From a virus (taxonomy: Duplodnaviria > Caudoviricetes): DNA of 64,000 nucleotides. Positions within the stretch are counted from its first letter, which is position 1. Every line of letters begins with the position of its first letter. The DNA lies in the IMG/VR virus record IMGVR_UViG_3300037067_016777, positions 128,001 through 192,000 of that record, one strand, 5' to 3'. Below are positions 6,062 through 49,584 of this stretch, one piece after another. A program made the translations under genes and the position numbers. Below the pieces are notes generated by a model. The model ran no database searches and was not told the origin of the DNA. It worked only from the letters and a program-made list of their open reading frames with translations.

Positions 6062-6062
6062 T

Positions 6063-6602: not shown

Positions 6603-6615
6603 ATCAATTTACCTA

Positions 6616-7527: not shown

Positions 7528-7528
7528 A

Positions 7529-8170: not shown

Positions 8171-8173
8171 AAT

Positions 8174-9820: not shown

Positions 9821-9829
9821 GATTGTTTC

Positions 9830-19055: not shown

Positions 19056-19083
19056 TATTTTAAAAAGGTTAAAGGAGCATATC

Positions 19084-20817
19084 GTGCGATTCCACGTCAT
19101 GGGACTCCAACATACTGTTTCGTCCAAAGAGTTTGTTGCTTGTGCATACACTCAGAAGGTCGTCAAATTCGCGAAGATGATGACTGACCGTGGTCATACT
19201 GTTATTCATTATGGACACGAAGATTCAGATCTACAGTGTTCGGAACATGTACCAGTCCTTACAGATAAGGATTGGAAGGTAGCTTATGGTAATCATGATT
19301 GGAGGAAGCATTTCTTCAAATTCGATACCGGCGACCACGCTTATACGACATTCAATGCGAATGCAATAAGAGAGATCGGCAAACGCAAACAGAGGAACGA
19401 TTTTATTTTGCCTTTCTGGGGATCTGGACACAGACCTATTTGCGATGCTCATCCAGATCTTATTTGCGTCGAGCCAGGGATCGGCTATGCTGGTGGACAC
19501 TGGGCTAAATATAAGATCTTCGAATCTTATGCTATTTATCATGCCTATTATGGCCTGACATCTGTTAGCTCTTGCATACAGAATTGGTATGATACCGTTA
19601 TACCGAATTATTTCAATCCAGATGAGTTTGAATTCTCCGCTGAGAAAGACAACTATTTTTTATTTTGTGGCCGCGTATATGTTGGTAAGGGCATCCATAT
19701 TGCTGAGCAAATTGCAAAAGCAATCGGTGTTAAGCTTATTGTAGCAGGACAGAAGGGTGATGATTATGAATTGTCTAAAGATCCACTTATTGAATTTGTC
19801 GGATATGCGGATATTGAAAAGCGTAAGAAACTTATGTCACGTGCTAAAGGTTTAATTTTAGCCAGTCAATATAACGAGCCTTTTGGTGGTGTCCAGATTG
19901 AGAGTTTGTTCTCTGGTACGCCGACAATTACAACAGATTGGGGCGCTTTTACAGAGAACAATCTACACGGAATTACCGGTTATCGGTGCCATACTTTCGA
20001 GCAATTTGTTTGGGCTGCGAAGAATATTGATAAGATTAGTCCACATGCTTGCCGTGCCTGGGCACTTAATAATTTTTCGATGGAACGGATTGCCGGAATG
20101 TATGAGGAGTTTTTCGAGTCTATCTTGGATATTCATGGAAAACAGGGGTGGTACGAGCCAAAGCCAAATCGAACAGACTTATTGTTCAATAAGAAGTTCT
20201 ACCCAGTTGTTGAGGAGAAGATTGATTATACACAAGTAGCAAAAGAGGAAGAGCCGTTTGCGAAACAGTTAGCTACTTGGATTAAGGAGGCTGTCGACCC
20301 GAAAGATGTAATCGATATCGGATGCGGTCCTGGGATTTATACTTATGCGATGACTAATGTAGGTATTAAGTGTATAGGTATAGATATCGACCCGCGTATC
20401 GCCGACGAGGAGGGTCTATTTGTTGAAGATCTGTTGCAATTAAATGGTAAATTTCAAAAGCAACTTGCGATTTGTTTAGAAGTAGCAGAACACATCGACC
20501 CACAATATTCTAACCAAATCGTAAAGCAAGTCTATGATTGTGTTTTGCCAGGAGGTATTCTGTTATGGACAGCGGCGTGTCCTGGTCAGGGTGGTGTCGG
20601 GCATATTAACTGCCGACCGAAGCAATATTGGCGTGAGAAGTTCGAAGCGCTTGGTATGGTCTATGATGACGCTTTGCATTCCAAGTGTATAGAGTATTGT
20701 CTGCAAGGCCCACACATGGGCTGGTTTATCAACAATCTACTATGCTTCCGCAAATACGCACCAGTTGTGGCGGAAGAGAACATTATTGTTAAGAAACCGA
20801 GTAAAAAGAAAGTCTAG
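19084..20817 (+). CDS. GT4 glycosyltransferase fused to class I methyltransferase
   Basis: EPFGGVQIESLFSGTPTITTDWGAFTE; IDIGCGPG, CLEVAEH, PGQGGVGHIN. Confidence 0.85.
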   Translation: MRFHVMGLQHTVSSKEFVACAYTQKVVKFAKMMTDRGHTVIHYGHEDSDLQCSEHVPVLTDKDWKVAYGNHDWRKHFFKFDTGDHAYTTFNANAIREIGKRKQRNDFILPFWGSGHRPICDAHPDLICVEPGIGYAGGHWAKYKIFESYAIYHAYYGLTSVSSCIQNWYDTVIPNYFNPDEFEFSAEKDNYFLFCGRVYVGKGIHIAEQIAKAIGVKLIVAGQKGDDYELSKDPLIEFVGYADIEKRKKLMSRAKGLILASQYNEPFGGVQIESLFSGTPTITTDWGAFTENNLHGITGYRCHTFEQFVWAAKNIDKISPHACRAWALNNFSMERIAGMYEEFFESILDIHGKQGWYEPKPNRTDLLFNKKFYPVVEEKIDYTQVAKEEEPFAKQLATWIKEAVDPKDVIDIGCGPGIYTYAMTNVGIKCIGIDIDPRIADEEGLFVEDLLQLNGKFQKQLAICLEVAEHIDPQYSNQIVKQVYDCVLPGGILLWTAACPGQGGVGHINCRPKQYWREKFEALGMVYDDALHSKCIEYCLQGPHMGWFINNLLCFRKYAPVVAEENIIVKKPSKKKV

Positions 20818-25758: not shown

Positions 25759-27615
25759 ATGACCAATATCACACATCTGCCACAAACAGCGTCTGATGGT
25801 TTGGAGGTATGTGATGCCTATGGCTCGATATGGAAATATGACCTCCAAACTAATTCTTGGGTTAATATTGGTGCAGTTGGCGACTCACCGATTGTGACCG
25901 AATCAAAAGACGGGTTAGTTTCTCCAGTTATTTATACTCGTATTAATGCAATATCTCAAGCGGTTCGAGATGGTCTCAGTTTCGACTTCTTAAAGATATA
26001 TCCATATGTGCATGGATATTATTATTTGTTTCAATCTTCAAATCACACAATCACATTTGAACCAGAATCGAATAGTGATTTGAGAATGGAGATAAGTAGA
26101 CCAAGGCTACTTTCGCTTTTATCGCAATTAAAATGTCCAGGAGAACAAGGTGTAGTCGGCGATCAAGGAGATGTTGGATTAGATGGGGAAACCGGGGCAG
26201 CAGAGTTAAAATATTCTGCTGTAATATCTGATTCAATACTATCAATAAATGTACCTGTCGATAATTCATTAGGAACTCCGATATCGCTGAGAGTTTTTGC
26301 TAATAGCTCCAACACTCCGACAATTACAATAAAAATAATTGGTTCAGAGTTTGAAGTTCTACAGTCTACTATAGAAATAGATTTAGACTTTACATTTTTT
26401 GATTATTCTGATGGCCAGTTGGTTGGCCAAATAACGAGTTCAGAATGGGGAACAATAAGATGGTATTATAAAGCCCTACAAATGGGTAGGAAAGGTATAA
26501 AGGGCGCTGATGGCGGAGAGTTTTTAAGTGTTATATCTGATACTATTAATGATTCTAATTTAAGATCGAATACAGCTGTTATATTGATGCGTGATGGTGA
26601 TGGTGTCGGAATAATTAATTATCTTTCGGCAGCACTATTTAAAATAAACTGCGTGTCGAAAGTGGCTGTTAATCATTTGTGCTCTACCACAACAACATCA
26701 TTAACAGATTCATATGCAGCGTTGCAGATGAGTATAAATAATTGCAAGAATATAACTAGATTTATTATGGATCCGATAGTTGTAGATATACCAAAGCTTG
26801 TTTTCAGTGAATGGACACCGACAAGTACGTGTTTGCGGCAACGCCATCTTGCCGCTACTAAGCTATCTTGGATGGATTTTACCAAAGTTGGTTCTGATAT
26901 GAAACCCTGGCATAAAGCTAATGAGAATACTGCCAGCGATCCTGGTTACCCATGGGCAATAGTCGAAGAATCAGATCCTGGGCAATTGTGTTGCCAGGAG
27001 GATTTTTTCTTTTGCTCAAATGTAAATGACGTAACAGGTGCCTGCCCAATTAATCTTGTAGATGATTTACAAACGCCAGCGTCGTCCGCTTATGGCTGTG
27101 ATTGTGATTGTCCTATATCATTCTTATTAGAGGGTGGATATGATTTTGAAGATGTTAAAATGATTAGCGTAGATGATAAATCTTCACAAATTGCTGTTTG
27201 TAGTATAAATGGCGAGGCGCACGAATATAATCTTACTGTCGATGTCGATACACCGACAGCGACTATAACTGTCAGTTGGAAGTTGGAATATGACTCATTA
27301 TGTGATGAGGCTAGAGAGGTATATGCTGCACAAGTTAGCAACATACCGAATTTTGTGTTTGATCCAAGAGATGCGGTTTCTGAAGCAAATTGCCCAATAA
27401 GCTGGGGAATTACAGACAAAACAACACAAACAACAACAATATCACGATCTGATAGTAGCCCACAGTCGCTATCTACAATAGGGACGCTATCGTTTAATTT
27501 TGTCGGTACGTCAGGAACAATTATCACTACAGCTACCATCAACACCTTAAGATTAAATTGCTGTCTTGGATATAAATTGACTGTTTCTGTTAGTGCAGTG
27601 GAGGCGACATCTTGA
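25759..27615 (+). CDS. Cys-rich putative virion structural protein (paralog of next gene)
   Basis: Shares YYYLFQSSNHTITFEPES..DLR.EISRPRLLSLLSQLKCPG and CCQEDFFFCSNVNDV with 27612; short Gly-X-Y tracts. Confidence 0.7.
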   Translation: MTNITHLPQTASDGLEVCDAYGSIWKYDLQTNSWVNIGAVGDSPIVTESKDGLVSPVIYTRINAISQAVRDGLSFDFLKIYPYVHGYYYLFQSSNHTITFEPESNSDLRMEISRPRLLSLLSQLKCPGEQGVVGDQGDVGLDGETGAAELKYSAVISDSILSINVPVDNSLGTPISLRVFANSSNTPTITIKIIGSEFEVLQSTIEIDLDFTFFDYSDGQLVGQITSSEWGTIRWYYKALQMGRKGIKGADGGEFLSVISDTINDSNLRSNTAVILMRDGDGVGIINYLSAALFKINCVSKVAVNHLCSTTTTSLTDSYAALQMSINNCKNITRFIMDPIVVDIPKLVFSEWTPTSTCLRQRHLAATKLSWMDFTKVGSDMKPWHKANENTASDPGYPWAIVEESDPGQLCCQEDFFFCSNVNDVTGACPINLVDDLQTPASSAYGCDCDCPISFLLEGGYDFEDVKMISVDDKSSQIAVCSINGEAHEYNLTVDVDTPTATITVSWKLEYDSLCDEAREVYAAQVSNIPNFVFDPRDAVSEANCPISWGITDKTTQTTTISRSDSSPQSLSTIGTLSFNFVGTSGTIITTATINTLRLNCCLGYKLTVSVSAVEATS

Positions 27616-30326
27616 ATTGCCACGCATTTAGTAATAGAACAGATATCACAGATGGCACTATTGTTCTAGACAATAGTGGCGATCAGTGGCAATATAATAG
27701 TAAATTGAATATATGGTCTTGTATTGGTAGCTTTCAGACTATTCCAGTTGTTACAAGCACTAATGATGGATTGATTTCTCCGGCTATTTATTCACGCATC
27801 AATGCAATATCAGAAGCAGTCGCCAATGGGCTAAAGTTTGATGCTCTTAAAATATATCCACACACATTAGGTTATTATTATTTATTTCAATCTTCGAACC
27901 ATACGATTACATTTGAACCTGAATCAGCAAACGATCTCAGGATCGAAATAAGCAGACCAAGATTGCTATCACTTTTATCACAATTGAAGTGTCCGGGAGC
28001 ACAAGGAGAAGTCGGCGAACAGGGTGCTACAGGTGATTCTGGTGTTGCTGGAAAAGCAGAAGCAAAACATATAGCTGTTGTAGAAGGCTCAACATTAACG
28101 ATTGATGCTATTGTCGGATCTACGATTGATACTCCAATATCGTTGCGTTTATTCAGAAATGACTCTTCTGAAAGCTCATTAACAATTTGGCAGCCAATCA
28201 ATGGTGATGATTTTATTATAATTTATTCAGAATTCGAACTTAGCATAGGTTCGTTTTTAAATTATGATCGTGTCGGATCTATTCTATATGGAGAGTTGAT
28301 ATCTAATGAATGGTCTAGCGACACATGGTATTACAAAGCAAACGAGATTGGACGAAAAGGAACACAAGGTGTAGATGGTTCTGGGTTCTTTGATGTTGTC
28401 GAGAATAGCTTAGTAGATGATACTCTTAATGCAACAGAAGCTATTATAACATTGCGTTATAACAATCCACAGCCAGATATCTATTTCTTTTCTGATACTT
28501 TATTTTCAAAGAATTGTGTTTCTAAACTTGCTATTTCGCATACTTGTAGCACTACTAATGTTGATGATCTTAGTACTGTTGTTGATCTCTCGCTTGCTGC
28601 TGTTAGATCAACAACGGAAACTTGCAAAAATATTACACGATTTCAATTTATAGAAAAGCAAACTACTGCACCTACACTAGAGTTCGTTGAGTGGACTCCT
28701 ATAGAAGCCTGCTGGACACAGCACCAAGCAAATCAATTTAATTGGAAGGATTTTACTCCAGCATCAATAGTTGCTTGGAGAGAAGCAAATTCAAGTACAA
28801 ATCGAGACACACGATATCCGTGGTCTATTATCGAACCGCAGTTTCCGGGGCAGAGATGTTGCCAAGAGGATTTCTTCTTTTGTTCGAATGTGAATGATGT
28901 TGCTGGTGGTTGTCCTGTTTTGCTTATCGAGCCTTTTGTTCCGCCGACAACAGAGTTATGCTGTCCGTGCGATTGTCCTAGTTATTTAGATAATAGCCTT
29001 GAGATAAACCTGCCATATAATGCAGACTCGTCTGTTGATCCGACCTGTGTAGGATTCGATTGTGTAATTGATGGTACGTTACAACATTATGATATCACAA
29101 TTAATGTCCCATCCACCAATAATGGCTCTATAACTACGAATATCACACTTAGCACAATTTTTAATTCGATTTGCGACGAAGCCAGAGCGATCAGTAGTGC
29201 ATCATGTCCGGAGTATCCAGACACAAGTACATGCCCCGTCTCATGGTCAGCAGTATGTTCAAATAGTAACGTCCCTGGTGGGAAGAAATATTCTACAATT
29301 GGTTCAGCATTAACGTTTGCATATTCTGGACCAAGCGGTGTTGCACTTGAATTTGGAATTGATATTAACTTAGCAGGCACTAGTTGCTGTTTAGGGTATT
29401 CGGTTTTAGCTTGTGCGATTGGTCCGTCAACTCGACCAACAACGACGCCAGCTCCGTCTACGACACCATCACCTACACTCGGACCAACACCAACTCCGCC
29501 GACAACAATATCGCCATATCCGACGACGACGCCAGCTCCATCTACGAGCTACACTCCGCCCATAACTACGCAAAAGCCAACAACAACGCCTGGACCAACT
29601 ACATCTGAAGCGCCTCCTGAAGTAATATGCCCAGGAAAATGCACGTGGTATTTGTCCGCTGGCGGTGGTACATGGTCTAAAGCTACCAACCCATGTACGC
29701 CAGGATGTTATTGTCCGACGCCAACCAGCAGTACACCAAGGGCACCATATGGCGGAGGATATATTGCTTATACAAGATGCAAACCCGGTAGCGGACCAGA
29801 GCCATCGCCGTCGCCATCACCAGAGCCACCAGGATCGCCATCGCCATCGCCATCACCAGCAGGAGTTTGTAGTTATACTATAACAGCGCAAATAGATTGG
29901 GCTACACAGACTGATTTCGATTTGTATGGTAAGCGTGGATCTGAAGCCGCATGCTATTTTGGTTCGCCAATCGTTGGTGGCCACCATGCATCTGGCGGAT
30001 TAACGTTAAATAACGATGTGTACCCATCATGTGATGTAGGTCCACCAGATCCGCCTGAAATAATTAGCGGCACATATGCTGTTGGACATACTTTCCAATT
30101 TTGGTATAATAGATGGAGTGAGGACGGTGCTGCGGGATGTATAGATGGTGATGTAACTTCGCAGAGCATAGTTGTACAGAACACAGGAACCGGCAATATA
30201 ACTGTTAACGGTATAAATCTAACACCAGGCAGTTTCGCGGCGTTTGGATCGTCTATAACATTCGATATGAGGCGTCATGATGTGCCTGATGGTAGTGGTA
30301 CACCTATTGTTGTAGCTTGTGCGTAG
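27612..30326 (+). CDS. Cys-rich putative virion protein with mucin-like Pro/Thr/Ser linker
   Basis: Paralogous N-terminal ~600 aa, then PTTTPAPSTTPSPT... tract and PSPSP tract. Confidence 0.75.
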   Translation: MNCHAFSNRTDITDGTIVLDNSGDQWQYNSKLNIWSCIGSFQTIPVVTSTNDGLISPAIYSRINAISEAVANGLKFDALKIYPHTLGYYYLFQSSNHTITFEPESANDLRIEISRPRLLSLLSQLKCPGAQGEVGEQGATGDSGVAGKAEAKHIAVVEGSTLTIDAIVGSTIDTPISLRLFRNDSSESSLTIWQPINGDDFIIIYSEFELSIGSFLNYDRVGSILYGELISNEWSSDTWYYKANEIGRKGTQGVDGSGFFDVVENSLVDDTLNATEAIITLRYNNPQPDIYFFSDTLFSKNCVSKLAISHTCSTTNVDDLSTVVDLSLAAVRSTTETCKNITRFQFIEKQTTAPTLEFVEWTPIEACWTQHQANQFNWKDFTPASIVAWREANSSTNRDTRYPWSIIEPQFPGQRCCQEDFFFCSNVNDVAGGCPVLLIEPFVPPTTELCCPCDCPSYLDNSLEINLPYNADSSVDPTCVGFDCVIDGTLQHYDITINVPSTNNGSITTNITLSTIFNSICDEARAISSASCPEYPDTSTCPVSWSAVCSNSNVPGGKKYSTIGSALTFAYSGPSGVALEFGIDINLAGTSCCLGYSVLACAIGPSTRPTTTPAPSTTPSPTLGPTPTPPTTISPYPTTTPAPSTSYTPPITTQKPTTTPGPTTSEAPPEVICPGKCTWYLSAGGGTWSKATNPCTPGCYCPTPTSSTPRAPYGGGYIAYTRCKPGSGPEPSPSPSPEPPGSPSPSPSPAGVCSYTITAQIDWATQTDFDLYGKRGSEAACYFGSPIVGGHHASGGLTLNNDVYPSCDVGPPDPPEIISGTYAVGHTFQFWYNRWSEDGAAGCIDGDVTSQSIVVQNTGTGNITVNGINLTPGSFAAFGSSITFDMRRHDVPDGSGTPIVVACA

Positions 30327-30337
30327 TATATAACCAC

Positions 30338-32182
30338 ATGGCTAAATTAACTATTGGTATGGCACATTACGATGATTTTGACGGAGTGTATTTCTCCGTG
30401 CAAGCTCTTCGAATGTATCACGATATGAGTGATATTGAGCTAATTGTTATTGATAATTCGCCACACACAGATGCTGGTAAGACAGTTGCTACATTTATTA
30501 ATGACACGGCATTCGCAAAATATGTAGCCTATGATGAGGTTATCGGCGCAGCGAATGCAAAAAATCGTATATTTCATGAGGCACAAAGTGATCTGGTTTT
30601 ATGTATAGATTGTCATGTTATGCTACCGCCTGGATCTATTAGACGTCTTATTAATTGGTATGATTTCAACCCGAACAATAAAGACTTATTAACAGGGCCA
30701 TTGGTTTACAATAATTTGCAAGACATTTCAACACATTTTGATTTATCTTGGCGTGGCGATATGTGGGGTATTTGGAGTAGGGCTTGGTCGTGTCGGTGCG
30801 GTAATCATTTTTCGATTTCTATCCCAGTTAATTTATTGACAGATGCTATAGTTCATGATCTGATGAATTACAATTCAGTATACACGCAATGTCCTAATTG
30901 CGGAATAGTCTATCCCAAGATCTCATATGCTGGCCACGAAGCATATTTTCATAATATTGGATGCAGACAATTAGGTCTCAATATAAACGATTCTCCTTTT
31001 GAGATACCAGCTAATGGAATGGGTCTTTTTTCTTGTCGTAAAGAGGCTTGGCTTGGATTTAACCCAGCATTTCGTGGATTTGGTGGAGAAGAAGGCTACA
31101 TCCATACCAAATATCGCCAAGCTGGCCGGCGATGCTTGAACTTACCGTTTCTTCCATGGGTTCATCGTTTCCTACGTGCGAGTTCCGTTTCTTATCCATT
31201 GAATTATTGGGATAGGGTACGCAATTATGTCATAGGACGTCAAGAGCTTCATTTATCTGTAGATGATGTCCATAATAACTATGTCGGCCATGAGAAACCG
31301 ATAGATGGAAAATCATGGGACTATCTTATTGAAGATCCAATTGCACATATTGATGCACCATGTTCAGAATGCCAGCATATAGGTTCTAATATTGATGAAG
31401 CATTCACTTGGACGGCAACGCATCCACACAATATGGGATGTCATATGCCACGTTTTCGTGAGCTTGCTTCGAAATGTGAACACATAACAGCCATGGTTAA
31501 GCAAAAAGAGTTTGATGTTGCTCTGTTAGCGGGCCACCCAAAAACTTTGCGTGTCTATACATTAGAGCCGTCGCCAATTCATAAACAATTAGCTGACTTA
31601 GTCAATGATATAGATTACAAAACTGAAAGTGTCGACTGGTTGGCATTGGATGATATTGAAGAAACAGATCTTTTAGTGATTCATTCTTTCCATCGTGCAG
31701 ATAGACTATATGCAGAGTTGTCGAAATTTGGTAAGAAAGTTCGTCGTTGGATTTTGTTGCGGTCTACTGAAGTATATGGAGAACAAGGAGAATCTTTTGG
31801 ACCTGGTTTATTCCCGGCTATGCGAATGTATATGCGCGAACATCCCGAGTGGTCAGTGATCGAGCACGATAAACGTGATTTTGGTTATACTCTGCTTAGT
31901 CGAGATCCAGCAGATAAAAAGAAGTTGCCGCCATTCACTAAAATGGTTTGGAATTACACAAAAGCGATTGCAAAACATAATCTTTCTGGTAGAAAGACGG
32001 CGAGATTAGAAACTATCGAAACTAGATTGGATAAATGTGCTCTTTGTATGTGTCGCACTCGTAATCGTTGTACAATATGTGGTTGTTTTTTGGATATAGG
32101 ACCAGGCGAAATGGATGGTAAAGCTCTATGGCCTGAATCTTTTTGCAGTTTAGGTGAATGGTTTGAAGAGGATGATCGATGA
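30338..32182 (+). CDS. Multidomain GT2-like glycosyltransferase with methyltransferase-like middle and C-terminal Cys cluster
   Basis: IVIDNS, LCIDCH, GFNPAFRGFGGEEGY; TDLLVIHSFH; RLDKCALC..RCTICGC..K......CSLGEW. Confidence 0.75.
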   Translation: MAKLTIGMAHYDDFDGVYFSVQALRMYHDMSDIELIVIDNSPHTDAGKTVATFINDTAFAKYVAYDEVIGAANAKNRIFHEAQSDLVLCIDCHVMLPPGSIRRLINWYDFNPNNKDLLTGPLVYNNLQDISTHFDLSWRGDMWGIWSRAWSCRCGNHFSISIPVNLLTDAIVHDLMNYNSVYTQCPNCGIVYPKISYAGHEAYFHNIGCRQLGLNINDSPFEIPANGMGLFSCRKEAWLGFNPAFRGFGGEEGYIHTKYRQAGRRCLNLPFLPWVHRFLRASSVSYPLNYWDRVRNYVIGRQELHLSVDDVHNNYVGHEKPIDGKSWDYLIEDPIAHIDAPCSECQHIGSNIDEAFTWTATHPHNMGCHMPRFRELASKCEHITAMVKQKEFDVALLAGHPKTLRVYTLEPSPIHKQLADLVNDIDYKTESVDWLALDDIEETDLLVIHSFHRADRLYAELSKFGKKVRRWILLRSTEVYGEQGESFGPGLFPAMRMYMREHPEWSVIEHDKRDFGYTLLSRDPADKKKLPPFTKMVWNYTKAIAKHNLSGRKTARLETIETRLDKCALCMCRTRNRCTICGCFLDIGPGEMDGKALWPESFCSLGEWFEEDDR

Positions 32183-32838
32183 TCAAATCACTTCACAATC
32201 TTTATAAAGGTGCAACAATTGCTGTTGTTGGATCGGGGCCGACAGCCACCAATTACACACAAGGTAAGGTTGATGTTTCAATAGGTGTTAATGGGGCAGC
32301 TAAATTTTGTTCGAACCCTAGAGCAGATAAGTTCGATTATTTTATGTGTGGAGATGTTAAATCATCAACATTTGATTGGTTTAACATTGTTTGCTCTAGA
32401 GTTAGAGTAATTGCAAAGTTGACTGCTGCACCAGACAAAATTCTTTATCCAGATGCGCTATTTCCAAACATTAAGCGTGATGCTGTCCCAACCGCAAAGC
32501 AAAATTCAATAATATTACCTTTACCAATTAAGCCACATCTTACTTTTATATATAAATGGTGGAAACCAGATCGGCTTAAAAATGACATGAATTATCTGAT
32601 GTTTGGTGGGACTATCAGTTGTTGTGCTGTTCAGTTAGCTTATATTATGGGAGCTGCTAAGATTGTATTATACGGTTGTAGCTTCACAAGCACAGGCAAT
32701 CACTATTTTTATTACACAAGAAGACCGGGCACTATTTCTGATAGCCAGCGTGCAGTTATGAGTATGGTTATTAGCGAAATAAAGAAACGCGGAGTCAAGA
32801 TTGAAGCTGTTGGTCACACGATGCTTGAATTAACTTAA
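32179..32838 (+). CDS. Maf/DUF115-like (sialyltransferase-like fold) protein
   Basis: IAVVGSGPT, IGVN, TISCCAVQLAYIMGAAKIVLYGC. Confidence 0.65.
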   Translation: MIKSLHNLYKGATIAVVGSGPTATNYTQGKVDVSIGVNGAAKFCSNPRADKFDYFMCGDVKSSTFDWFNIVCSRVRVIAKLTAAPDKILYPDALFPNIKRDAVPTAKQNSIILPLPIKPHLTFIYKWWKPDRLKNDMNYLMFGGTISCCAVQLAYIMGAAKIVLYGCSFTSTGNHYFYYTRRPGTISDSQRAVMSMVISEIKKRGVKIEAVGHTMLELT

Positions 32839-32855: not shown

Positions 32856-34361
32856 ATGTCAACTGCTACAATTATAATGTCGGTATTGAATGAGGAATAT
32901 ACAGAAAAGACGATTGATACAATTGTAGCCAACACGACGCCTGGATTGATCGATGAATTTATTATTGTTGACGATTGTAGTAAAGTACCTGTTGTAATAG
33001 ATAGGCCGAATGTTAGAATTATACGAAATCAACTGCGGGAAGGCTTGCAACGATCGCGTAATATTGCTGCTTCTGCTGCAAAATCGCCAATTATAGTATC
33101 AATAGATGCACACGTTAAGGTTGCATCAAATTGGTTACCGCCGATTATTGCTAGATTGACAGAACGGTATAATTGTGTTGGTGTACCTCTAACTAGAGGT
33201 CTTGATGCGCCGACTTGGATGGAAACTACAGCCGCTTATGCCAAGACTGGTTGGCGTTGGAATCTTGATTTTAATTGGATTCACGACGATGGTCGCGATA
33301 TAACACCATGCTTAGCTGGCCATTGTTTTGCATTTACTAAACAATGGTGGGACGAAATCGGTGGATTTGATATTGGGATGTATAAATGGGGATGTGAAAA
33401 TATTGAATTCTCATTGCGTACTTGGCTGGCTGGCGGCTCAGTTGAGATTATTCGCGATTCGATAGTAGCGCACTGGTTCAAGAAAAATTTCAACTATGAT
33501 CTTGATACTACGACTCTCGAACAGAACAAAGCACGGATAGCTGAAGTATGGTTCAATGATTATAAGAAACTTTTTTATCAGGCCATACGCAAGAAACCTG
33601 GCGATATCAAGTTCGGCGATATATCAGAACGCACAGCTATACGAGATCGAATTCAGAAGCGACCATTTGAATGGTTTTTAGATAATTTCTTGCCGGACCT
33701 GCGTGGTATAGAAATGTTGAAAAATAAGCATGCTAATGCACGTATCGCCATATTAGGTGCTGGGCCATCTTTAGATCATGTAACTAGTGGGATATTAGAT
33801 GATTTTGATGTTGTTATTGGCGTGAATTATAATGCATTAGTATTCAGTTGCGATTATGTTATTTTCCATGATTTAAAACCAGCAGAAGCAGTAATAGATG
33901 CCAATCGTTATCTTCCAAACCAGTTACTTATTCCTAAAAAATTGAAAACTGGGGCTGGTTCTACGTTGGTTGAGCCGCCACATAAGTTTTCCGATTGTGT
34001 GACTTTTGAGCTCGGATCGCAAGATAATGATTCTTGCTTGAATAATAAAGACCAACCATTCTTTCACCATGCCTCTACCGTTCATACAGCGATACATATA
34101 GCAGCGTTCATTGGAGCGAAGTCTATAACTCTATTTGGGTGTGATGCAAGACTTGCTCCTGACGGTCGCAGCCACACTACCTTGGTTCCGCAGTATAATA
34201 AAGGTAAATACTGGCCTGACAACAAAGATACTGAAAATTATATAGCTCGAATCAACCGGGGATACGATATGCTACTTGGGCCATTAAAGAAATGGAATAT
34301 TCAATTGCTGCGTTATGAATATATGGTTAGCAGTCAAAGAGCAGCAGGGCTTCAAAGGTAA
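32856..34361 (+). CDS. Polypeptide GalNAc-transferase (GT27)-like domain fused to Maf/DUF115-like domain
   Basis: REGLQRSR, IDAH, WLPPI, TPCLAG, GGFDIGMYKWGCENIEFSLRTWLAGG, NKARIAEVW, GDISER, F.WFLDN; second domain ILGAGPSL, IGVN, STVHTAIHIAAFIGAKSITLFGCD. Confidence 0.8.
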   Translation: MSTATIIMSVLNEEYTEKTIDTIVANTTPGLIDEFIIVDDCSKVPVVIDRPNVRIIRNQLREGLQRSRNIAASAAKSPIIVSIDAHVKVASNWLPPIIARLTERYNCVGVPLTRGLDAPTWMETTAAYAKTGWRWNLDFNWIHDDGRDITPCLAGHCFAFTKQWWDEIGGFDIGMYKWGCENIEFSLRTWLAGGSVEIIRDSIVAHWFKKNFNYDLDTTTLEQNKARIAEVWFNDYKKLFYQAIRKKPGDIKFGDISERTAIRDRIQKRPFEWFLDNFLPDLRGIEMLKNKHANARIAILGAGPSLDHVTSGILDDFDVVIGVNYNALVFSCDYVIFHDLKPAEAVIDANRYLPNQLLIPKKLKTGAGSTLVEPPHKFSDCVTFELGSQDNDSCLNNKDQPFFHHASTVHTAIHIAAFIGAKSITLFGCDARLAPDGRSHTTLVPQYNKGKYWPDNKDTENYIARINRGYDMLLGPLKKWNIQLLRYEYMVSSQRAAGLQR

Positions 34362-34366
34362 TTATT

Positions 34367-34684
34367 ATGGCTGTTGTGGCGCTATTAGTTGCATTGGTGG
34401 CTCTAGCTGTCGCACTCATAGCACTCGGACTAGTTGTAATAATTTATCGAGAAGCCTTTGTTAATCGCAACTTGGAAAGACCGATTACGCAAGCTCCCAC
34501 CGGAGGAAATTCCAGAGAGCAAAGAGCTACAGCGCGAACTGCTAATGCCACCGAGCAGCCTATTTCCTCTTCATTTCTCAACGCGCCAGATATTACCCCC
34601 GAAACGCTTGCCCCATTGCTTGGACGACCACCCTTGCCTAAAGGTGGATTTGGAACAAAAGTCGTCACAAAGCGTAATAGCTGA
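34367..34684 (+). CDS. Single-pass membrane protein
   Basis: N-terminal ~25-aa hydrophobic helix followed by low-complexity tail. Confidence 0.7.
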   Translation: MAVVALLVALVALAVALIALGLVVIIYREAFVNRNLERPITQAPTGGNSREQRATARTANATEQPISSSFLNAPDITPETLAPLLGRPPLPKGGFGTKVVTKRNS

Positions 34685-34760
34685 CGAAGAGTTAGAGGAA
34701 TCAATTTTTGTATTTGGATTAGATGGATTACAGGACGACTGTATAACCAGGAGAACGGCA

Positions 34761-35831
34761 ATGAATGCAATCGGTATTGATATTGGAACTAAGAATATAG
34801 TTCTTTCTTTTCGCAATAATAAAAAATTAATATTTATTAAAGAGATTAATGGCTATTACTTAATTCCGCGTCCTAGTAAATTCATAGAAAATATGTTGGA
34901 CGATCCCAACAAGACACGCTCTGATGGGACACGCCGACCAGCAAAATGGATTCGTTTAGATGGCAAGGATGGGATTTATATTTTGGGCAAGGATGCTGAA
35001 GAATTAGCTTATGCACATAACGATACTTTATTGCGACCGATGGCAGAAGGTGGAGTCGCTCCAGACGAAGATGCATTGATGATCCTATCAAGCATTGTAC
35101 AAGGTTTGCTGTCGATGTGTGAACATGATGCTGGTGTATTCGAACCAGAGATTACATTATGCTATTGCACAACAGCAAAAGCATTGAATCATGCAATGAA
35201 TATCGACTACCATCAGCAAGTTTTGAATTTAATTATCTCTAGCTATGAGACGACATCGACAATCAAGACAACTTCTATCAAAGAATCGCATGCACTTGTC
35301 CTAAAAGAGACAGCTGATGCTACTGGTATTGGTATATCATGGGGAGCAGGAACTGTTACAGTTAGTTATGTTTTGTGGGGTAATGAGATTTATTCGTTTA
35401 GTTGGGTTGGTGCTGGCGATTGGATTGACTCAGAAGTTGCTAAACGACATGGATATGATCCAGATGCACCTCGTAAGAAATCAGCAGAAACACCAACAAC
35501 CGTTTGTCGCACAAAAGAAACGATTGATTTGACACATAGTTATACATCGCGGCTTGAATTAGACATTATATTGCATTATCGCATTCTTATTCAAAATGTG
35601 ATTCGTGGAATTGTTCAAGGTTTTATCGATAACGAAACAAACGCGCGTATTGATAAACCGATCGATGTATTTATGGCTGGTGGGACGTCAAGTCCGTCTG
35701 GATTTGAGGAAATGGTCGCCGAATTATTCCAAGAAGAGAAGATGCCGTTTGCTATCAACAAAATAAAACGATGTAAAGATCCGCTATTTGCTGTTAGCGA
35801 AGGGTGTCTTATCGCAGCAGAAACATCTTAA
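34761..35831 (+). CDS. Actin-like ATPase (MreB/ParM/FtsA superfamily)
   Basis: IGIDIGTKN (phosphate 1), LRPM..G, ES.A, GISWGAGT (phosphate 2), AGDWID, MAGGTS (adenosine); AGGAG RBS. Confidence 0.85.
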   Translation: MNAIGIDIGTKNIVLSFRNNKKLIFIKEINGYYLIPRPSKFIENMLDDPNKTRSDGTRRPAKWIRLDGKDGIYILGKDAEELAYAHNDTLLRPMAEGGVAPDEDALMILSSIVQGLLSMCEHDAGVFEPEITLCYCTTAKALNHAMNIDYHQQVLNLIISSYETTSTIKTTSIKESHALVLKETADATGIGISWGAGTVTVSYVLWGNEIYSFSWVGAGDWIDSEVAKRHGYDPDAPRKKSAETPTTVCRTKETIDLTHSYTSRLELDIILHYRILIQNVIRGIVQGFIDNETNARIDKPIDVFMAGGTSSPSGFEEMVAELFQEEKMPFAINKIKRCKDPLFAVSEGCLIAAETS

Positions 35832-35835
35832 AAAT

Positions 35836-37233
35836 ATGCAAGTCGACGCTAGTCAATATTCCGGTCCCAAAGAATTTGCGCATTTACATGTGCATTCTCT
35901 GTTTAGCTCTTTAGATGGCGTTCCTTCTGCAGAGCAATATGCTGATGCATGTTTGAAATCTGGTTTTCCGGCTATGGCCGCTACAGAGCATGGCCATATG
36001 GCGTCGTTTCCCGATATGTATTTTGCTTTCAAGAAACGAGGCTTAAAATATGTCGCCGGATCAGAAGTATACTATAATGATTATGAAGAGCTACGTAGAA
36101 AATTCGATGGAGTTGGCAAGAAACCGAAATCTTTACCAGAGTCTTTGCAATTTCGTATCACACGTAATCGCCACCTTACTATCCTGGCAAAAAACGCTAT
36201 TGGTGTTTCCAATTTAATAAAATTGACGACTTTGGCGTGGGAAGACGCTTATGGTGGTAAACCGCGTATTTGGTTTGAGAAGCTGTGCGAACGTAAAGAG
36301 GGTTTAATAGTCTTATCTGGCTGTATAAATGGCCCATTAGCATATGAATTGCGATTAGATATTGAATCCAATATTCAAAAAGGTAAACCGTGCTCGCGTA
36401 GTAAAGCCGATAGAACGGCATTGGAATATCTGAAGAAATTCAAGGATGTGTTTGGTGAGGACTTCTTTATAGAAGTGCAGATGCCATGTATCCCCGAATT
36501 GCATGACGTAGAGGTATTCCGCAGTTTAATTGAATATGCTGATGGGTGTGGTGTCAAAGCAGCAGTCACCAACGATAGCCACTACCTGACACGTGACGAT
36601 GCATATCTTCAAAAGATTATGATGGCGGTCGATCAAAAGACCAATATTTATGATAAAAACATGTTCGCATCGCAGGGCGACGAGCAATTTTTTAAAACGA
36701 GGGCTGAGCTTTGGGCAACATTCAAGAATGGTGGTTATTCAGATGGTATAGATGACGCTAAATTTGAGGAGATATGCGATAATACGTTACTGATAGCAGA
36801 GCGATGCGACAAGCTTGCACCAGATACATCTCCTAAAATCCCAAATTGGTCTACTATAGAGCCAGGCACAAATGCAAATGATGCATTGCGCAAAATAGTA
36901 GACCAACAACTCCAATTGCGTAGCTGGGATAAGAGTACTGAAAGATTTCCTTGTGATGGGCGAGATGTTACATATGCAGAACAAGCAGAGATAGAGCTGA
37001 ATAGGTTTATTGATAAAGGCTTCTCCAGTTACTTCTTAATCACTAGAGACTGGATACAATGGGGTAAAAAGCAAGGATGGATTTTCGGACCACGCGGTTC
37101 GGCTGCTGGTTCACTCGTATGTTATCTGTTGGGGATTCATAATATCAATAGCCTTAAATGGAAATTGAGTTTTGATCGTTTCTTAGCTAGTTCGCGTGGT
37201 GGTTATCTTTTAAAGGTTAAAGTTGATGGATGA
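35836..37233 (+). CDS. dnaE: DNA polymerase III alpha, N-terminal part (PHP domain plus start of palm)
   Basis: HLHVHSLFSSLDG, TEHG, HLTILAKN..G..NL, TNDSHY, GF.SYFLI, GPRGSAAGSLVCYLLGI, LSFDRFL; ends before PDIDID. Confidence 0.9.
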   Translation: MQVDASQYSGPKEFAHLHVHSLFSSLDGVPSAEQYADACLKSGFPAMAATEHGHMASFPDMYFAFKKRGLKYVAGSEVYYNDYEELRRKFDGVGKKPKSLPESLQFRITRNRHLTILAKNAIGVSNLIKLTTLAWEDAYGGKPRIWFEKLCERKEGLIVLSGCINGPLAYELRLDIESNIQKGKPCSRSKADRTALEYLKKFKDVFGEDFFIEVQMPCIPELHDVEVFRSLIEYADGCGVKAAVTNDSHYLTRDDAYLQKIMMAVDQKTNIYDKNMFASQGDEQFFKTRAELWATFKNGGYSDGIDDAKFEEICDNTLLIAERCDKLAPDTSPKIPNWSTIEPGTNANDALRKIVDQQLQLRSWDKSTERFPCDGRDVTYAEQAEIELNRFIDKGFSSYFLITRDWIQWGKKQGWIFGPRGSAAGSLVCYLLGIHNINSLKWKLSFDRFLASSRGGYLLKVKVDG

Positions 37234-37648
37234 ATATATAGATTCTTTGCGATCACTACATGCTGCAATGAGCGATTATTTATTATTAGTTGGTGAACCA
37301 TGTCCATTATTAGGACAACTCTGCATGCGTCTTGTTGAGATAATAGGTTGTCTGCCTCCAGGCAATGAACCACAGACGGATAACTTAGACAAACTCACAT
37401 CACTTATTTTAGAAGCTGCTATACTTGGTGTTATAAATAGATTAGAAGAACTACAACCAAAATCTGAACCGTGTCTGCGAAGTGCAAAGGATTGTATGAA
37501 AATCACAGGCACACTTAATACACACGATCGTTGTGGCGTATTTTTCAAAGTGCTTGGCATAGCAATAGCTGGTTTACAGGAAATTACTGGTAGCGAATAT
37601 CCACAACTTTCAGACGGCAGTGGCAAAAAGCTTAGAGGTACACAATGA
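37226..37648 (+). CDS. Hypothetical helical protein between the dnaE halves
   Basis: 140-aa ORF overlapping neighbours on both sides. Confidence 0.65.
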   Translation: MDEYIDSLRSLHAAMSDYLLLVGEPCPLLGQLCMRLVEIIGCLPPGNEPQTDNLDKLTSLILEAAILGVINRLEELQPKSEPCLRSAKDCMKITGTLNTHDRCGVFFKVLGIAIAGLQEITGSEYPQLSDGSGKKLRGTQ

Positions 37649-38118
37649 AGATTTCAATATACGCTTGCGGCTATAGTATTGACAATGGCAAGCCTACGCA
37701 ACGTGGTGCTTGTGCTGCTGGGCTGCATTATGTTGATGATCACGATCGTAGGGCTATTAGAGTTATCAGTGAACCTGTTGGTAATAGTACAGGGCCTCAA
37801 TGCGATTTAAAAGCCGCTATATTGGGTTTGATGAGTATTAAGGCGACTCCTGTATTACGATTGCGCAAAGCATCAGTTGAGTTAATTACAACAAAGTATG
37901 TTGCGCAATTTATGGAGCGTACGGATGGTGAATTTAAATTAATACCAAAGAAGAATATTGAATTGATACGCCGATTTCGCGAAAAGGCTGACTTGTTCGA
38001 TAATTTGGCTGTGCAGGTAGGGACAAAAGAGCAATTACAACAATCTTTCGACATAGCCAAAACAACAGTAGAAACTGGTATTGGTAGTGACAGCGAAACA
38101 ATCATGACAACAACATAA
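37645..38118 (+). CDS. RNase HI-like fold protein lacking the canonical catalytic acids
   Basis: KISIYACG..., STGPQCDLKAAILGL, VELITTKYV, KKNIELI align with IYTDG, TNNRAELxAxIxAL, IxTDSxYV, KNxDL. Confidence 0.55.
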   Translation: MKISIYACGYSIDNGKPTQRGACAAGLHYVDDHDRRAIRVISEPVGNSTGPQCDLKAAILGLMSIKATPVLRLRKASVELITTKYVAQFMERTDGEFKLIPKKNIELIRRFREKADLFDNLAVQVGTKEQLQQSFDIAKTTVETGIGSDSETIMTTT

Positions 38119-38135
38119 TAGACATAGATCTCAAT

Positions 38136-40937
38136 ATGGGAAAATATGATTTTGATACCATTGTGAAGGCCGCATACAAGAAAATCAATCGGCTTGGATT
38201 ACCTGTGATCTATACCAAGAGATTAGATTTTGAGATAGAACAAATTCGTATGCAGGGAGCTCAAAGGTATTACGAAGATTTAATAGAGTCTGGTAAGAAG
38301 TTTGATAAAAACCCAAACCAGTTGCTGCTGCCGTGGTTGCTAGATCGATTTACTGGTGATGCTGATATTGATCCTATTGCGCATAGAGACGGACCGCTGA
38401 TGCTCAGTGCGAAGTATGATGATGTTCAAGATATTCTAAAGAAAACTGGAAAATTGCCAGTAGATATTCGCCAAGATGATGATAAACCGGATATTGATAT
38501 TGATTGTTTACCAGAGGTAAGGAACCAAATTAAGGATTATGTCGCTAAACGCTATGGCAAGCATAATGTGGCCAGTGTTGGTACTTGGCAAGCTTATTTA
38601 TTTAAGCAAGCCATTGCAGATGCTTATGCTGGTCTTGGCCTGGAAAAAATCAATCGAGATCAAGGAGCCAAGAACAGAGCGATCGAATTAACAAAGATTC
38701 TGCCAGATGAAGTTAATGAGATGCGAGAAGGTGGATATGGTGTTTGTAAGGGGCGTGTGAAAGAAAACGGTGTCGATAAAGAATGTGGTGTTAAGCACAA
38801 AGGTTTAAAATGTCCGCAATGCCAGAGTGAAGATACTGATACGCCAACTATTGCTATGATAATGAGAGATTATCCAGAAATTGGGAAATTCATAGCAGAA
38901 GATAAAGAAGTACATCAACAAGTAATTGATACCGCTATTCGTCTAGTTGGTCGCATCAAGCATGCTGGTAAACATGCTGGTGGTCTTATTATTGCAGATC
39001 GAGACTTATTCGGTAATGTGCCGATGCAATATGATAAAAAGACCAATCAATGGGTTAGTATTTGGACGGAAGGTCGTAATACACAACTGTCGAAGTTTGG
39101 TTATGTTAAGTGGGATGTGCTCGGATTAAAGAATCTGTCTTATATAAAGACAGCTTGTGCGATGATTAATGAGAATCACGGAATTTCTTTTGGCGACCGG
39201 CTCGAAGGTTGGGATGAATCAGATCCTATTAATAATGTTGCTGGATATTATTGGGAGAATGGTGAAAGAAAAGCGATACCGCTTGAGGATCCGGCAGCAC
39301 TAAAATTAGCTAATGACTCGCAGACTGACAGCATTTTCCAATTTGATACTGACCTTGCTAAACGGACGCTATCTGCTGGCGTGCACGGTTTTCGCGATTT
39401 ATTGATCTTCAATGCAATGGGACACCCTGGCCCGATGCAATCTATACCTGATTACGTTAAGAATAGAGATGATTACAGCAATAAATGGGCAAAAGGAGAA
39501 CATCCAGATATTGTTGAAATTCTGAAACCAACGAGCGGTGTGATTGTGTTTCAAGAACAGCTTACATCTATCTGGCAATGCGTTGCCGGGTTTACAGGTC
39601 CAGAGTCTCAAGACGCTAGAAAAGCTGTTGCAAAGAAATGGAAGGAAAAGCTTAAGCCAGTTAGGGAACATTGGCTAGTTGGTGCTAGCAAAAAGATCGG
39701 TGAATCGAAAGCACGTGAATATTGGGATAAGATGGAGACATTCGGCCGCTACGCCTTTAATTTGAGTCACGCTATTTGCTATTGTTTATGGGCGTATCGC
39801 TGTTTGTGGCTTAAGGCACATTATGCTGAGGAATGGTGGGCTAGTGTGATGGGGACGTGCGATCAAAAAGCACTTGAGCGTTATATGAGTGCTGCACGTG
39901 GTGAGAATGTAAATTTTGGTGAGATTGATATTGCAAAGCTTACATTGCGTCCTACTGCACATTCTGGCCCGAGTGTGCAGGATAAACATATTGCATTAGG
40001 ATTAACCAGTTTAAAGAAGATTGGTGATAAGGCGGCAGATGCTTTTGTAGATAAAGTTGGCAATAATGTTTATGTTGATATTGATGATTTTATAGAGAAG
40101 AAAGGTAAGAGTAAGATTCTCTTTGAGCGTCTTATTAAACTAGGCGCATTTACAAAATTACATCCCAACAAAAGAGCTACTTGGATGTGGTATTTGCACC
40201 AGCACGGTACTGGGACTGTTGAGGAATTTGAATTTAAGGATGTTGACGAACAGGCTAAGGTGGAGATAGTTGAATCTAAAGCACAGCAGCTTAGTAAAAA
40301 ATCGAAGTTGAAGACTTTTAGCTATCCAATTAAAATTCTGAAGGCTTATCATGTTCGTCGCCTTATGGCGAAAGCTAATTGGACTGAAGAGACGATTGCT
40401 GCAGAAAGAGATCGTCAAATCGCAGTATTCAAACAGACATATCCTAAACGAAAAGTAATACCAGCTAAAATCTTGAACTATCGGCCTACTATTAAAGTTA
40501 CACATAAAGATATTATTGATTTATATCCTGATGACTACGAATTTATTCAAGTGCTTAAATTTGAAAAGGAATTTTTGGGTTATCATTGGCATTCTCCGAT
40601 CGATCTATATCGAACTAGTGGCAATCATACAGTCGACAAATCCAAGTTAAATGATTGTTTAGAAGGGGTGATAGAATCTATTGTGCAAGCTAAGACTAAA
40701 AAAGGCTCTGATATGCTTCGTATCGTGGTCTCTGATGGTCATAAGACGTGCTTGGTGCTAGTTTGGGAACAAGATATAAGAAACCAAACTAAGAAGAATC
40801 TGACTGTAGATAAAGGTGTTAGAATGAGGGTAGATTATGACAAAGATCGCAATAGTTTTGTTTTGAAGAGAGGTACTGTTATTGAACCTCTATGGACAGA
40901 AGAAGCCTGGCAAAGGCGACAATCTGACGCAGAATAA
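38136..40937 (+). CDS. dnaE: DNA polymerase III alpha, C-terminal part (palm, fingers, HhH, OB)
   Basis: KPDIDIDC, GKHAGGLII, VKWDVLGLKNL, IFQF, PGPM, GVIVFQEQ, RKAVAKK, FGRYAFNLSHA..Y, LKAHY, EKEFLG. Confidence 0.92.
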   Translation: MGKYDFDTIVKAAYKKINRLGLPVIYTKRLDFEIEQIRMQGAQRYYEDLIESGKKFDKNPNQLLLPWLLDRFTGDADIDPIAHRDGPLMLSAKYDDVQDILKKTGKLPVDIRQDDDKPDIDIDCLPEVRNQIKDYVAKRYGKHNVASVGTWQAYLFKQAIADAYAGLGLEKINRDQGAKNRAIELTKILPDEVNEMREGGYGVCKGRVKENGVDKECGVKHKGLKCPQCQSEDTDTPTIAMIMRDYPEIGKFIAEDKEVHQQVIDTAIRLVGRIKHAGKHAGGLIIADRDLFGNVPMQYDKKTNQWVSIWTEGRNTQLSKFGYVKWDVLGLKNLSYIKTACAMINENHGISFGDRLEGWDESDPINNVAGYYWENGERKAIPLEDPAALKLANDSQTDSIFQFDTDLAKRTLSAGVHGFRDLLIFNAMGHPGPMQSIPDYVKNRDDYSNKWAKGEHPDIVEILKPTSGVIVFQEQLTSIWQCVAGFTGPESQDARKAVAKKWKEKLKPVREHWLVGASKKIGESKAREYWDKMETFGRYAFNLSHAICYCLWAYRCLWLKAHYAEEWWASVMGTCDQKALERYMSAARGENVNFGEIDIAKLTLRPTAHSGPSVQDKHIALGLTSLKKIGDKAADAFVDKVGNNVYVDIDDFIEKKGKSKILFERLIKLGAFTKLHPNKRATWMWYLHQHGTGTVEEFEFKDVDEQAKVEIVESKAQQLSKKSKLKTFSYPIKILKAYHVRRLMAKANWTEETIAAERDRQIAVFKQTYPKRKVIPAKILNYRPTIKVTHKDIIDLYPDDYEFIQVLKFEKEFLGYHWHSPIDLYRTSGNHTVDKSKLNDCLEGVIESIVQAKTKKGSDMLRIVVSDGHKTCLVLVWEQDIRNQTKKNLTVDKGVRMRVDYDKDRNSFVLKRGTVIEPLWTEEAWQRRQSDAE

Positions 40938-41453: not shown

Positions 41454-41461
<8 letters not shown>
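41045..41461 (+). CDS. Hypothetical protein
   Basis: 138-aa ORF preceding the fibre genes. Confidence 0.7.
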
Positions 41462-43361
<1,900 letters not shown>

Positions 43362-43454
43362 TATTTGGTTTTTCCGATTATGTGTGCAGTTATACTAAGA
43401 AACAAATTTTAATTGTTGATCGCACCTAGATAGGCACCCTTGCATTTAGAGTAA

Positions 43455-47870
<4,416 letters not shown>

Positions 47871-47954
47871 GGTTTAGAATATCTGACACATCCAACCAAA
47901 CATAATGAGGATGGTATCGTGTTTGACTATCTGGACTAGGACCGCCAGTATATT

Positions 47955-49568
47955 ATGAAATTCAAAGAATTCAGAACTATTCAGCTTACTAGCGTGCCAG
48001 TTTTTGGCGACAATCCTCCAGAAAATACTGTATATGAGTGGTTTGTTAATATTGGTTTAACTACACAGACGTTATATTATCGATATCCAGATGGAACTGA
48101 GAGGATTGTTGCTGGCGGTGGCCAAATCGGATTGACCGGCGCAAGCGGTGCAACTGGGATAGCTGGGGCTACTGGTAGTGGCGATACAGGTGCTTCAGGG
48201 GCAACTGGCCCAGGCGGTGGTCCTACCGGTGCGACAGGATCGACAGGCCCTGCTGGTCTTGTCGGTGCAACCGGTATTGGGTTATCTGGTGCCACTGGTT
48301 CAACTGGACCACTAGGTGCTTCCGGCGCTACGGGGCCATCAGGAGGGCCTATTGGCTCGACAGGTGCTACTGGCCATGTTGGTGCTACTGGTGCAACCGG
48401 ACCGTCAGGAGGGCCTACGGGAGCCACAGGAGCAACCGGTATTGCTGGAGCCACCGGATTAATTGGTCTGTCTGGCTCGACTGGAATCGCAGGCGCTACT
48501 GGCACTGGTATAGCTGGGGCTTCAGGAGCAATTGGTGCTACTGGGCCTATAGGCTCAAGTGCGACAGCTGGCGCTAACGTAATAATAAATGGTGGCTTTG
48601 ATTTTTTCCAGCGTAATGGAAATACAGCAGTATCTTACTATTCTGCTACTGACGACACATATTGTTTTGATCGCTGGGTTAGCTTAAGCGAATCAGCCGC
48701 AACTTCTACTCTGCGATACAATCTAACGACAGGTACGTCAGCTCAGCCTGGCCCATTTGTTGGAGTTTTGAGAAATTTATCTGGATCAGCGCAAAGAATG
48801 GGATTATTGCAGATCGTTGAGGGATTTAATTCATTTCTATTGCGTGGACAATCTATAACTTTACAAGCAACAATAACTACTAGCGTTGCCGTCCGATATG
48901 CAATATTGGAGTGGACTGGTGTGGCTGATACTGTGACGAGCGATATTGTTAGAGACTGGGCGAGTACTTCATACACTGCAAATAATTTCTTTTTGAGTAG
49001 TAATCTTGCAGTTACAGCTATTGGTTCCATCGCTTCTACAGGATCTATCGCTTTAACTGCGACCGTAAGTGGTTCCTGCAATAATTTGATTGTTTTTTTC
49101 TGGACTGAATCACAATTAGCAAACAACGCACAGATATATCTAGCAAATGTTGATTGCCATACTGGTAGTGCTCGCGTTATGAGTCCAAGACCATACGCAG
49201 AAGAATTAACACTATGCCAACGATATTACGAGAAGAGCTATAACGTTGATGTAAAACCAGGCACAGTAGCAACGCGAGTTGGAGCAGTTGGCTCGACTGT
49301 CTTGTATGGCAATACCTGGTACTTAAATAACTTTATGGTATACTATACGACTGAAAAGCGTACACATGCAGGCCCGAGATTATACTCGCCGCAAACTGGT
49401 GCAACGAATTATGCTGGTGAGTATACTATGCAGCAGGCTTATGTAGCAGATCGACGTTTGCAAATTCTCAATAATGGTACAAAAGCATATGGTGTTGCGT
49501 CTGACGATGGAACTTTTAATGTGAACAACGTCATATGGCATCAATTTACGACAGAATGCGAATTATAA
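47955..49568 (+). CDS. Collagen-like fibre protein (paralog 1)
   Basis: [24 protein letters not shown] head, GAT tract, shared C-terminal domain ending ECEL. Confidence 0.85.
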
Positions 49569-49584
49569 AACTGGCAAAAGATTT

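Follow-up and report, generated by a model that had tools for sequence, protein, structure and literature searches.

A bacteriophage gene in the window (the whole 64,000-nucleotide stretch of DNA analysed here) encodes a 501-residue protein in which a catalytic domain of glycosyltransferase family GT27 is joined to a Maf/GT42-like domain. The catalytic domain is a GT27 member on the evidence of sequence, fold and tree, and its mode of action is very probably like that of a ppGalNAc-T. We propose, at a probability of roughly 0.6, that the enzyme O-glycosylates linkers of the phage's own fibre proteins in the cytoplasm, and that its second domain adds a sugar of the ulosonic-acid type. Since two canonical features fail, the lectin domain with the anchor and the N-acetyl pocket, a suitable name is GT27-family protein O-glycosyltransferase candidate, not GalNAc-T. 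The open reading frame lies on the + strand, from its ATG at 32856 to its stop at 34361, and is divided as follows.

32856..34361, + strand: GT27-Maf fusion gene; 501 aa, soluble, without transmembrane segment, signal or ricin lectin domain
32856..33707, + strand: GT27 (ppGalNAc-T-type) GT-A catalytic domain, residues 1-284
33708..34325, + strand: Maf/GT42-like domain, residues 285-490, in which D430 aligns with Maf D415

The original prediction had recognized the GALNT motif series in the N-terminal part of the protein and had placed it well beyond generic GT2 similarity. All nine named motifs occur, each in a single copy and in order (starting at residues 61, 84, 93, 150, 169, 204, 224, 254 and 271), which is far beyond chance. 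In a phmmer search of the PDB, 16 of 16 matches are polypeptide GalNAc-transferases (best E 3e-46, residues 17-284), and GT2 matches at E ≤ 0.001 are absent. Structure comparisons used the full-length AlphaFold model (pLDDT 92), which superposes on GalNAc-T2 with an rmsd of 1.8-1.9 Å over ~304 columns; the fold scores are Z 35.0 for GalNAc-T1 and 31.8 for Toxoplasma T3, compared with 20.5 for the best GT2 enzyme. The profile search gives family members at least 214 bits and generic GT2 proteins at most 62, with one protein at 94. Likewise, phage enzymes and GT27 proteins form one clade against the GT2 outgroups in the tree (95/96). Sequence, fold, profile and tree therefore all place the domain in GT27, and the prediction was borne out on this point. 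An ordinary bacterial GT2 enzyme is ruled out by the Z gap, the profile gap, the tree and the best NCBIfam match of the enzyme, 35 bits against a cut-off of 280. GT60 (Skp1 GlcNAc-T) was also considered and rejected, as PF11397 is absent from the Pfam matches of the enzyme at E ≤ 0.1.

We counted residue conservation over 50 phage copies and mapped it on GalNAc-T2. The active-site and donor-pocket features are listed here.

33105..33113, + strand: DxH metal motif D84-A85-H86 (GalNAc-T2 D224/H226)
33192..33194, + strand: T113, which replaces gatekeeper I253 of GalNAc-T2; T in 48 of 50 phage copies
33321..33326, + strand: H156-C157 of the N-acetyl pocket, which replace G309 and gatekeeper L310; H in 49 and C in 50 of 50 copies
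33387..33398, + strand: W178-G-C-E181 of the Gal/GalNAc-T motif (GalNAc-T2 W331, E334)
33471-33473, + strand: third metal ligand H206 (GalNAc-T2 H359)

The catalytic domain is alike over its entire length to those of human T2, mouse T1, Drosophila PGANT9 and Toxoplasma T3, with 32% identity, and shares with them the DxH motif and third histidine, W331 and E334 of the Gal/GalNAc-T motif, R201, R208, D176 and Y367. The metal triad D84, H86 and H206 is kept in 48-49 of 50 phage copies, and the UDP contacts D40 and R61 are conserved. F280, W282 and F361, which we take to be the peptide-groove aromatics of GalNAc-T2, have retained counterparts in F139, W141 and F208. R208, E334, A307, W331 and Y367, which have galacto-sugar O4/O6 or leaving-group roles in GalNAc-T2 (PMC4388629), correspond to R68, E181, A154, W178 and Y214 in 45-50 of the 50 copies; the galacto O4/O6 holders of the phage enzyme are R68 and E181.

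The N-acetyl pocket differs. The replacements I253>T, G309>H and L310>C occur in nearly every phage copy and in neither eukaryotic group, where most copies have I, G and L at these positions; R362 is also exchanged, for lysine. In bump-and-hole GalNAc-Ts the gatekeepers I253 and L310 have been mutated so that larger N-acyl groups can enter (PMC7276986), and the N-acetyl carbonyl is hydrogen-bonded by the backbone of G309 (PMC4388629). The predicted donor is a galacto-type UDP-sugar that may carry something other than N-acetyl at C2, because the pocket is replaced throughout the phage lineage; GalNAc is a possible donor too, since the G309 contact runs through the backbone. With three pocket residues replaced in nearly all phage copies, however, a GalNAc donor as first suggested is not established. 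Substitutions at the two gatekeeper positions predict a new donor range.

GT27 enzymes in the literature are eukaryotic, Golgi-anchored and equipped with a lectin domain. The phage enzyme, in contrast, is encoded by a bacteriophage and lacks the transmembrane anchor, the stem and the ricin lectin domain; there is no hydrophobic segment or PF00652 match in the 501-aa protein. Cys345 and Cys354 are both missing in this copy, and Cys354 is missing in all intact copies but one. A cytoplasmic enzyme fits the absence of the anchor and of the two cysteines.

In place of the ricin lectin domain the original prediction had named a Maf/DUF115-like domain, and this assignment is confirmed by Pfam, structure and profile matches. 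The PF01973 match has E 1e-6, at 28.7-30.1 bits against a gathering cut-off of 34.6 and thus below it. Residues 284-489 superpose on Magnetospirillum Maf (5mu5) with Z 12.0 and an rmsd of 3.4 for 168 aligned residues, and the family profile of the domain finds 5mu5 (E 1.6e-4) and then CstII (E 1.5e-3). Like Maf and the GT42 enzyme CstII, the domain has a GT-A core, the GxGPS motif and counterparts of the catalytic acids: D430 for Maf D415 and, once a 2-residue gap is closed, probably D339 for Maf E324, both Maf residues being catalytic (bioRxiv 2020.06.03.131540). It differs from Maf in its low identity (~16%), its lack of the other Maf domains and its fusion to GT27; folded alone from the single sequence it reaches a pLDDT of 38. 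The donors of Maf/GT42 enzymes are CMP-ulosonic acids. CMP-sugar synthetase (cytidylyltransferase, PF02348) genes lie near the locus in two relatives, and neither a CMP-sugar synthetase nor NeuB was found in the source record, which is ~74% complete.

The C-terminal domain may either cap the first sugar, as CstII would, or modify Ser/Thr directly, as Maf does. The prediction that the phage initiates and caps O-glycans on its own proteins is thus upheld in part. Its first half agrees with the GT27 assignment and with the Ser/Thr/Pro-rich fibre-like neighbours described below, but capping is not established, because in Maf-type transfer the ulosonic acid goes straight onto Ser/Thr, so that the domain may act independently. 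The roles might be reversed or independent, with the Maf-like domain or domains attaching the ulosonic acid to Ser/Thr and the GT27 domain extending the glycan or serving another acceptor. Mafs are proven Ser/Thr O-glycosyltransferases (bioRxiv 2020.06.03.131540), 5mu5 is the best match of the domain in both structure and profile, and the altered GT27 donor pocket points the same way. We nevertheless regard such a reading as unlikely: GT27 keeps its peptide-groove aromatics, the Maf domain has been lost from a marine clade within the phage family whose GT27 domain is intact, and what the C-terminal domain retains is only the GT-A core, which is common to the glycan-acting CstII.

To the preferred reading, in which GT27 acts on fibre linkers, the gene neighbourhood contributes candidate acceptors. 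In the fetched loci the gene order is conserved: a helicase precedes one or two Cys-rich fibre-like proteins, after which come a GT2 in some loci, then a Maf-like gene and the fusion, usually followed by Volactin and Pol III alpha. The neighbours in the window are as follows.

25759..27615, + strand: 618-aa paralogue of the 904-aa fibre-like protein; linker absent
27612..30326, + strand: fibre-like protein, 904 aa, Cys-rich, with short Gly-X-X runs; candidate acceptor
29424..29618, + strand: Thr/Pro-rich mucin-like linker (residues 605-669 of the 904-aa protein)
29784..29858, + strand: Ser-Pro repeat linker (residues 725-749 of the 904-aa protein)
30317..32182, + strand: GT2-type glycosyltransferase with a DxH-like motif and a Cys-rich insert; candidate extender
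32179..32838, + strand: stand-alone Maf/GT42-like protein, 219 aa; nearly always immediately upstream of the fusion
34458..35831, + strand: Volactin-like actin-fold gene; conserved downstream neighbour

Mucin-like stretches occur in two of the 286 ORFs of the genome. One is the 904-aa gene, which lies 2.5 kb upstream of the fusion and forms one co-directional, tightly packed gene run with it. The other is a 970-aa protein of the tail/baseplate cluster with a Ser-Pro-rich linker (G000 223460-226372). At 17 loci with an intact enzyme, the fibre-like protein upstream has a low-complexity linker of 24-60% Ser+Thr; among relatives the linker sequence is hypervariable while its Ser/Thr/Pro-rich composition persists, and orthologues of the 618-aa paralogue carry long Ser/Thr tails. 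A PHROG tail fibre match (E 0.005) for one fibre-like protein, with nothing for the other, hints weakly that these proteins may be virion parts. The GT2-type gene is missing from several relatives. The Volactin-like gene (E 1e-43), whose relatives in GenBank are confined to two huge-phage records, probably lies outside the glycan system. Five collagen-like fibre genes (window 41454-51210 and G000 922-2907) have 63-74% Thr/Ser at the Y position, and their products are possible further acceptors.

In the proposed mechanism, the soluble fusion protein would act in the host cytoplasm during infection. Its GT27 domain would bind Mn2+ through D84, H86 and H206 together with a galacto-configured UDP-sugar; given the rebuilt N-acetyl pocket, this sugar would be either GalNAc or a variant at C2. 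A retaining transfer would place it on Thr/Ser residues of the Pro-rich linkers in the fibre-like proteins, whose genes lie just upstream. The Maf/GT42-like domain and the stand-alone Maf-like neighbour would then add a CMP-activated ulosonic acid, for which sialic-, pseudaminic-, legionaminic- and Kdo-type sugars are candidates. The expected product is a stiff, protected, sugar-coated mucin-like stalk on a virion appendage, which suggests that some phages make mucin-like glycan stalks.

The comparison of intact and degenerate copies bears on this proposal. In a 17-locus group that includes the 501-aa copy, the metal ligands and catalytic residues are invariant. One sub-clade has lost DxH, W331, H359 and the Maf-domain signature together, and the full-length gene is kept at the same locus in this pseudo-enzyme clade (L058, L060, L062, L063, L064, L066, L068). 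Of six motif-less loci, four have Pro-rich linkers with 2-10% Ser+Thr, a fifth has no linker and the sixth has one with 25% Ser+Thr. Linker composition that tracks the catalytic state is what an enzyme-acceptor pair would predict, and hints weakly at such a pair; as all the 'dead' copies form a single clade (100/99), the correlation counts as one evolutionary event. There are exceptions: the dead locus L058 retains Ser-Pro-Pro-Val repeats, and at L051 and L052 the fibres are poly-Ser although the fetched flanks contain no GT27 gene. More broadly, distant fibre-like members (L051, L052, L053, L054, L056, L065, L067) carry long poly-Ser, with no GT27 in the fetched DNA.

The retention of a full-length gene in the same position by a sub-clade without the signature residues of either domain would also be expected of a non-catalytic partner of the fibre protein, a chaperone or binding subunit for which catalysis is dispensable, and the fusion's architecture recurs in an Atlas cluster of 54 viral proteins. 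A structural role does not, however, require the invariant metal ligands and catalytic residues of the 17-locus group, and we give this explanation little credence. It is also improbable, if slightly less so, that the enzyme acts on host targets (surface proteins, flagellin or envelope glycans, for example in receptor masking against superinfection) and stands beside the fibre gene incidentally. Many further glycan genes do lie in other clusters, including a gmd/fcl-like pair, and no mucin-like gene accompanies the stand-alone copies. Homologs only 27-60% identical nevertheless keep their place beside the fibre-like gene, and linker composition follows the catalytic state. Finally, the position of the gene between helicase and split DNA polymerase III alpha genes would suit the glycosylation of modified DNA bases as an anti-restriction measure, and some virus glycosyltransferases are known to hypermodify DNA (cited in PMC12619734). 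The probability of this is very small, as the fold and acceptor groove are those of the peptide-acting GT27 family and the co-variation of the linkers would be left without explanation.

A stand-alone GT27 domain of 282 aa occurs in a different phage lineage (L011:10001-10849, from marine samples, and L023:9992-10840), directly 3' of a UDP-galactopyranose mutase gene and near other GT-like genes; no mucin-like gene lies within 10 kb of either copy. It is the smallest natural version for assays.

We next consider the origin of the phage enzymes. The tree has three strongly supported groups. Two are eukaryotic, the canonical GalNAc-Ts and a divergent clade of alveolates and rhizarians; the third, the phage clade (100/98), falls inside neither of them and is sister either to the protist clade or to all eukaryotic GT27. 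In the tree with GT2 outgroups the phage-protist join reaches only 83/70, and monophyly of eukaryotic GT27 is not rejected by the AU test (p-AU 0.23); for these two reasons we claim no direction of transfer. Among the best 150 matches in 1.8 billion representatives, the phage family comes first, followed by proteins whose place in the tree is with eukaryotic GT27s, and nearly all the non-phage matches with a named source are alveolate or rhizarian. The protist clade (Chromera, Vitrella, Porospora, Alphamonas, Effrenium, gregarines and one rhizarian, Lapot) gives the best non-phage matches, with 38-44% identity and E down to 1e-64. It shares K88, L116, W121, K130, K225 and the loss of Cys354 with the phage clade, as well as a loop of 8-9 residues compared with 20 in the canonical enzymes. 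In contrast to the phage enzyme, the protist enzymes retain I253, G309 and L310 and are mostly membrane-anchored. The nearest eukaryotic relatives thus appear to be this clade and not the animal GALNTs, and either direction of transfer would fit. In these trees the phage enzymes are an old, third deep GT27 lineage. A full-length GT27 homolog in bacteriophages bears on the origin of mucin-type O-glycosylation. A stronger reading would see an ancient third lineage, possibly sister to all eukaryotic GT27, as a cytoplasmic mucin-type initiator that has neither anchor nor lectin, uses a donor other than GalNAc or one with a modified N-acyl group in its rebuilt gatekeeper pocket, and is fused to its own capping enzyme; we find it conceivable and still doubtful. 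If it were true, a single chain would be enough to assemble a sialyl-Tn-like disaccharide on virion mucins. A 338-aa GT27 protein with no recorded ricin domain, encoded on a gene-dense 3.6-kb contig (P0054, JGI 3300059473), groups with the rhizarian Lapot; its source could be a giant virus or a compact eukaryote.

The source is a tailed phage, a T4-like jumbo myophage, as the record is 269 kb long and encodes T4-type major capsid, portal and tail-sheath genes. The IMG/VR record is linear. Identical DNA occurs in a groundwater metagenome and near-identical pieces in landfill metagenomes; no RNA dataset is among the sources listed for the record's DNA, and a promoter scan gave a result at chance level. 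The crude pN/pS of the GT27 domain is 0.07-0.14 against six relatives, and purifying selection acts on the domain. We found ~60 phage homologs of the fusion enzyme, and the ESM Atlas holds many phage clusters with similar features. No homolog was found in 50,697 GenBank phage records, BFVD yielded solely distant GT-A folds (best match 17% identity), and pattern searches of GTDB species genomes, which are insensitive, brought up no GT27 domain, so that homologs in cellular prokaryotes are still conceivable. Two NCBI proteins with 83-91% identity to the phage protein carry a MAG-bacteria label (P0002, P0021); they probably come from phage contigs caught in the binning.

A literature search that covered few subscription journals found no paper on phage GT27. 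New here are the change of the N-acetyl pocket across the phage lineage, the Ser/Thr/Pro fibre linkers at 17 loci and the Ser/Thr-poor linkers of the motif-less sub-clade. Mycobacteriophages offer a precedent for self-glycosylation of virions (PMC11256854, PMC12363180): like the enzyme proposed here, the phage glycosyltransferases Che8 gp108-110 are reported to modify the phage's own structural proteins. Unlike the fusion enzyme they are not GT27, and a Che8-type enzyme was rejected as an identity, the family profile giving 13.6 bits on gp108 and nil on gp109 and gp110. The phage protein should be easy to assay, because it is a small soluble cytoplasmic protein and neighbouring genes encode its candidate acceptor peptides, and it would be a natural starting point for O-glycoprotein production in E. 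coli.

Several features of the surrounding DNA were also observed. A 105-aa ORF with a strong N-terminal transmembrane helix lies directly 3' of the fusion (window 34367-34684), and in L070 the fusion is likewise followed by an ORF of 105 aa. Further glycan clusters (window 2928-10822 and 17454-20817; G000 102617-106764 and 262247-265098) contain methyltransferases, a GT-radical SAM fusion and fucosyltransferase-like genes besides the gmd/fcl-like pair, and could elaborate the same glycan as the fusion. Lastly, the DNA polymerase III alpha gene is in two pieces, with a pair of small ORFs separating them (window 35788-40937); in the relatives L016, L017, L019 and L022 extra ORFs or longer versions interrupt both parts, which suggests introns or inteins.
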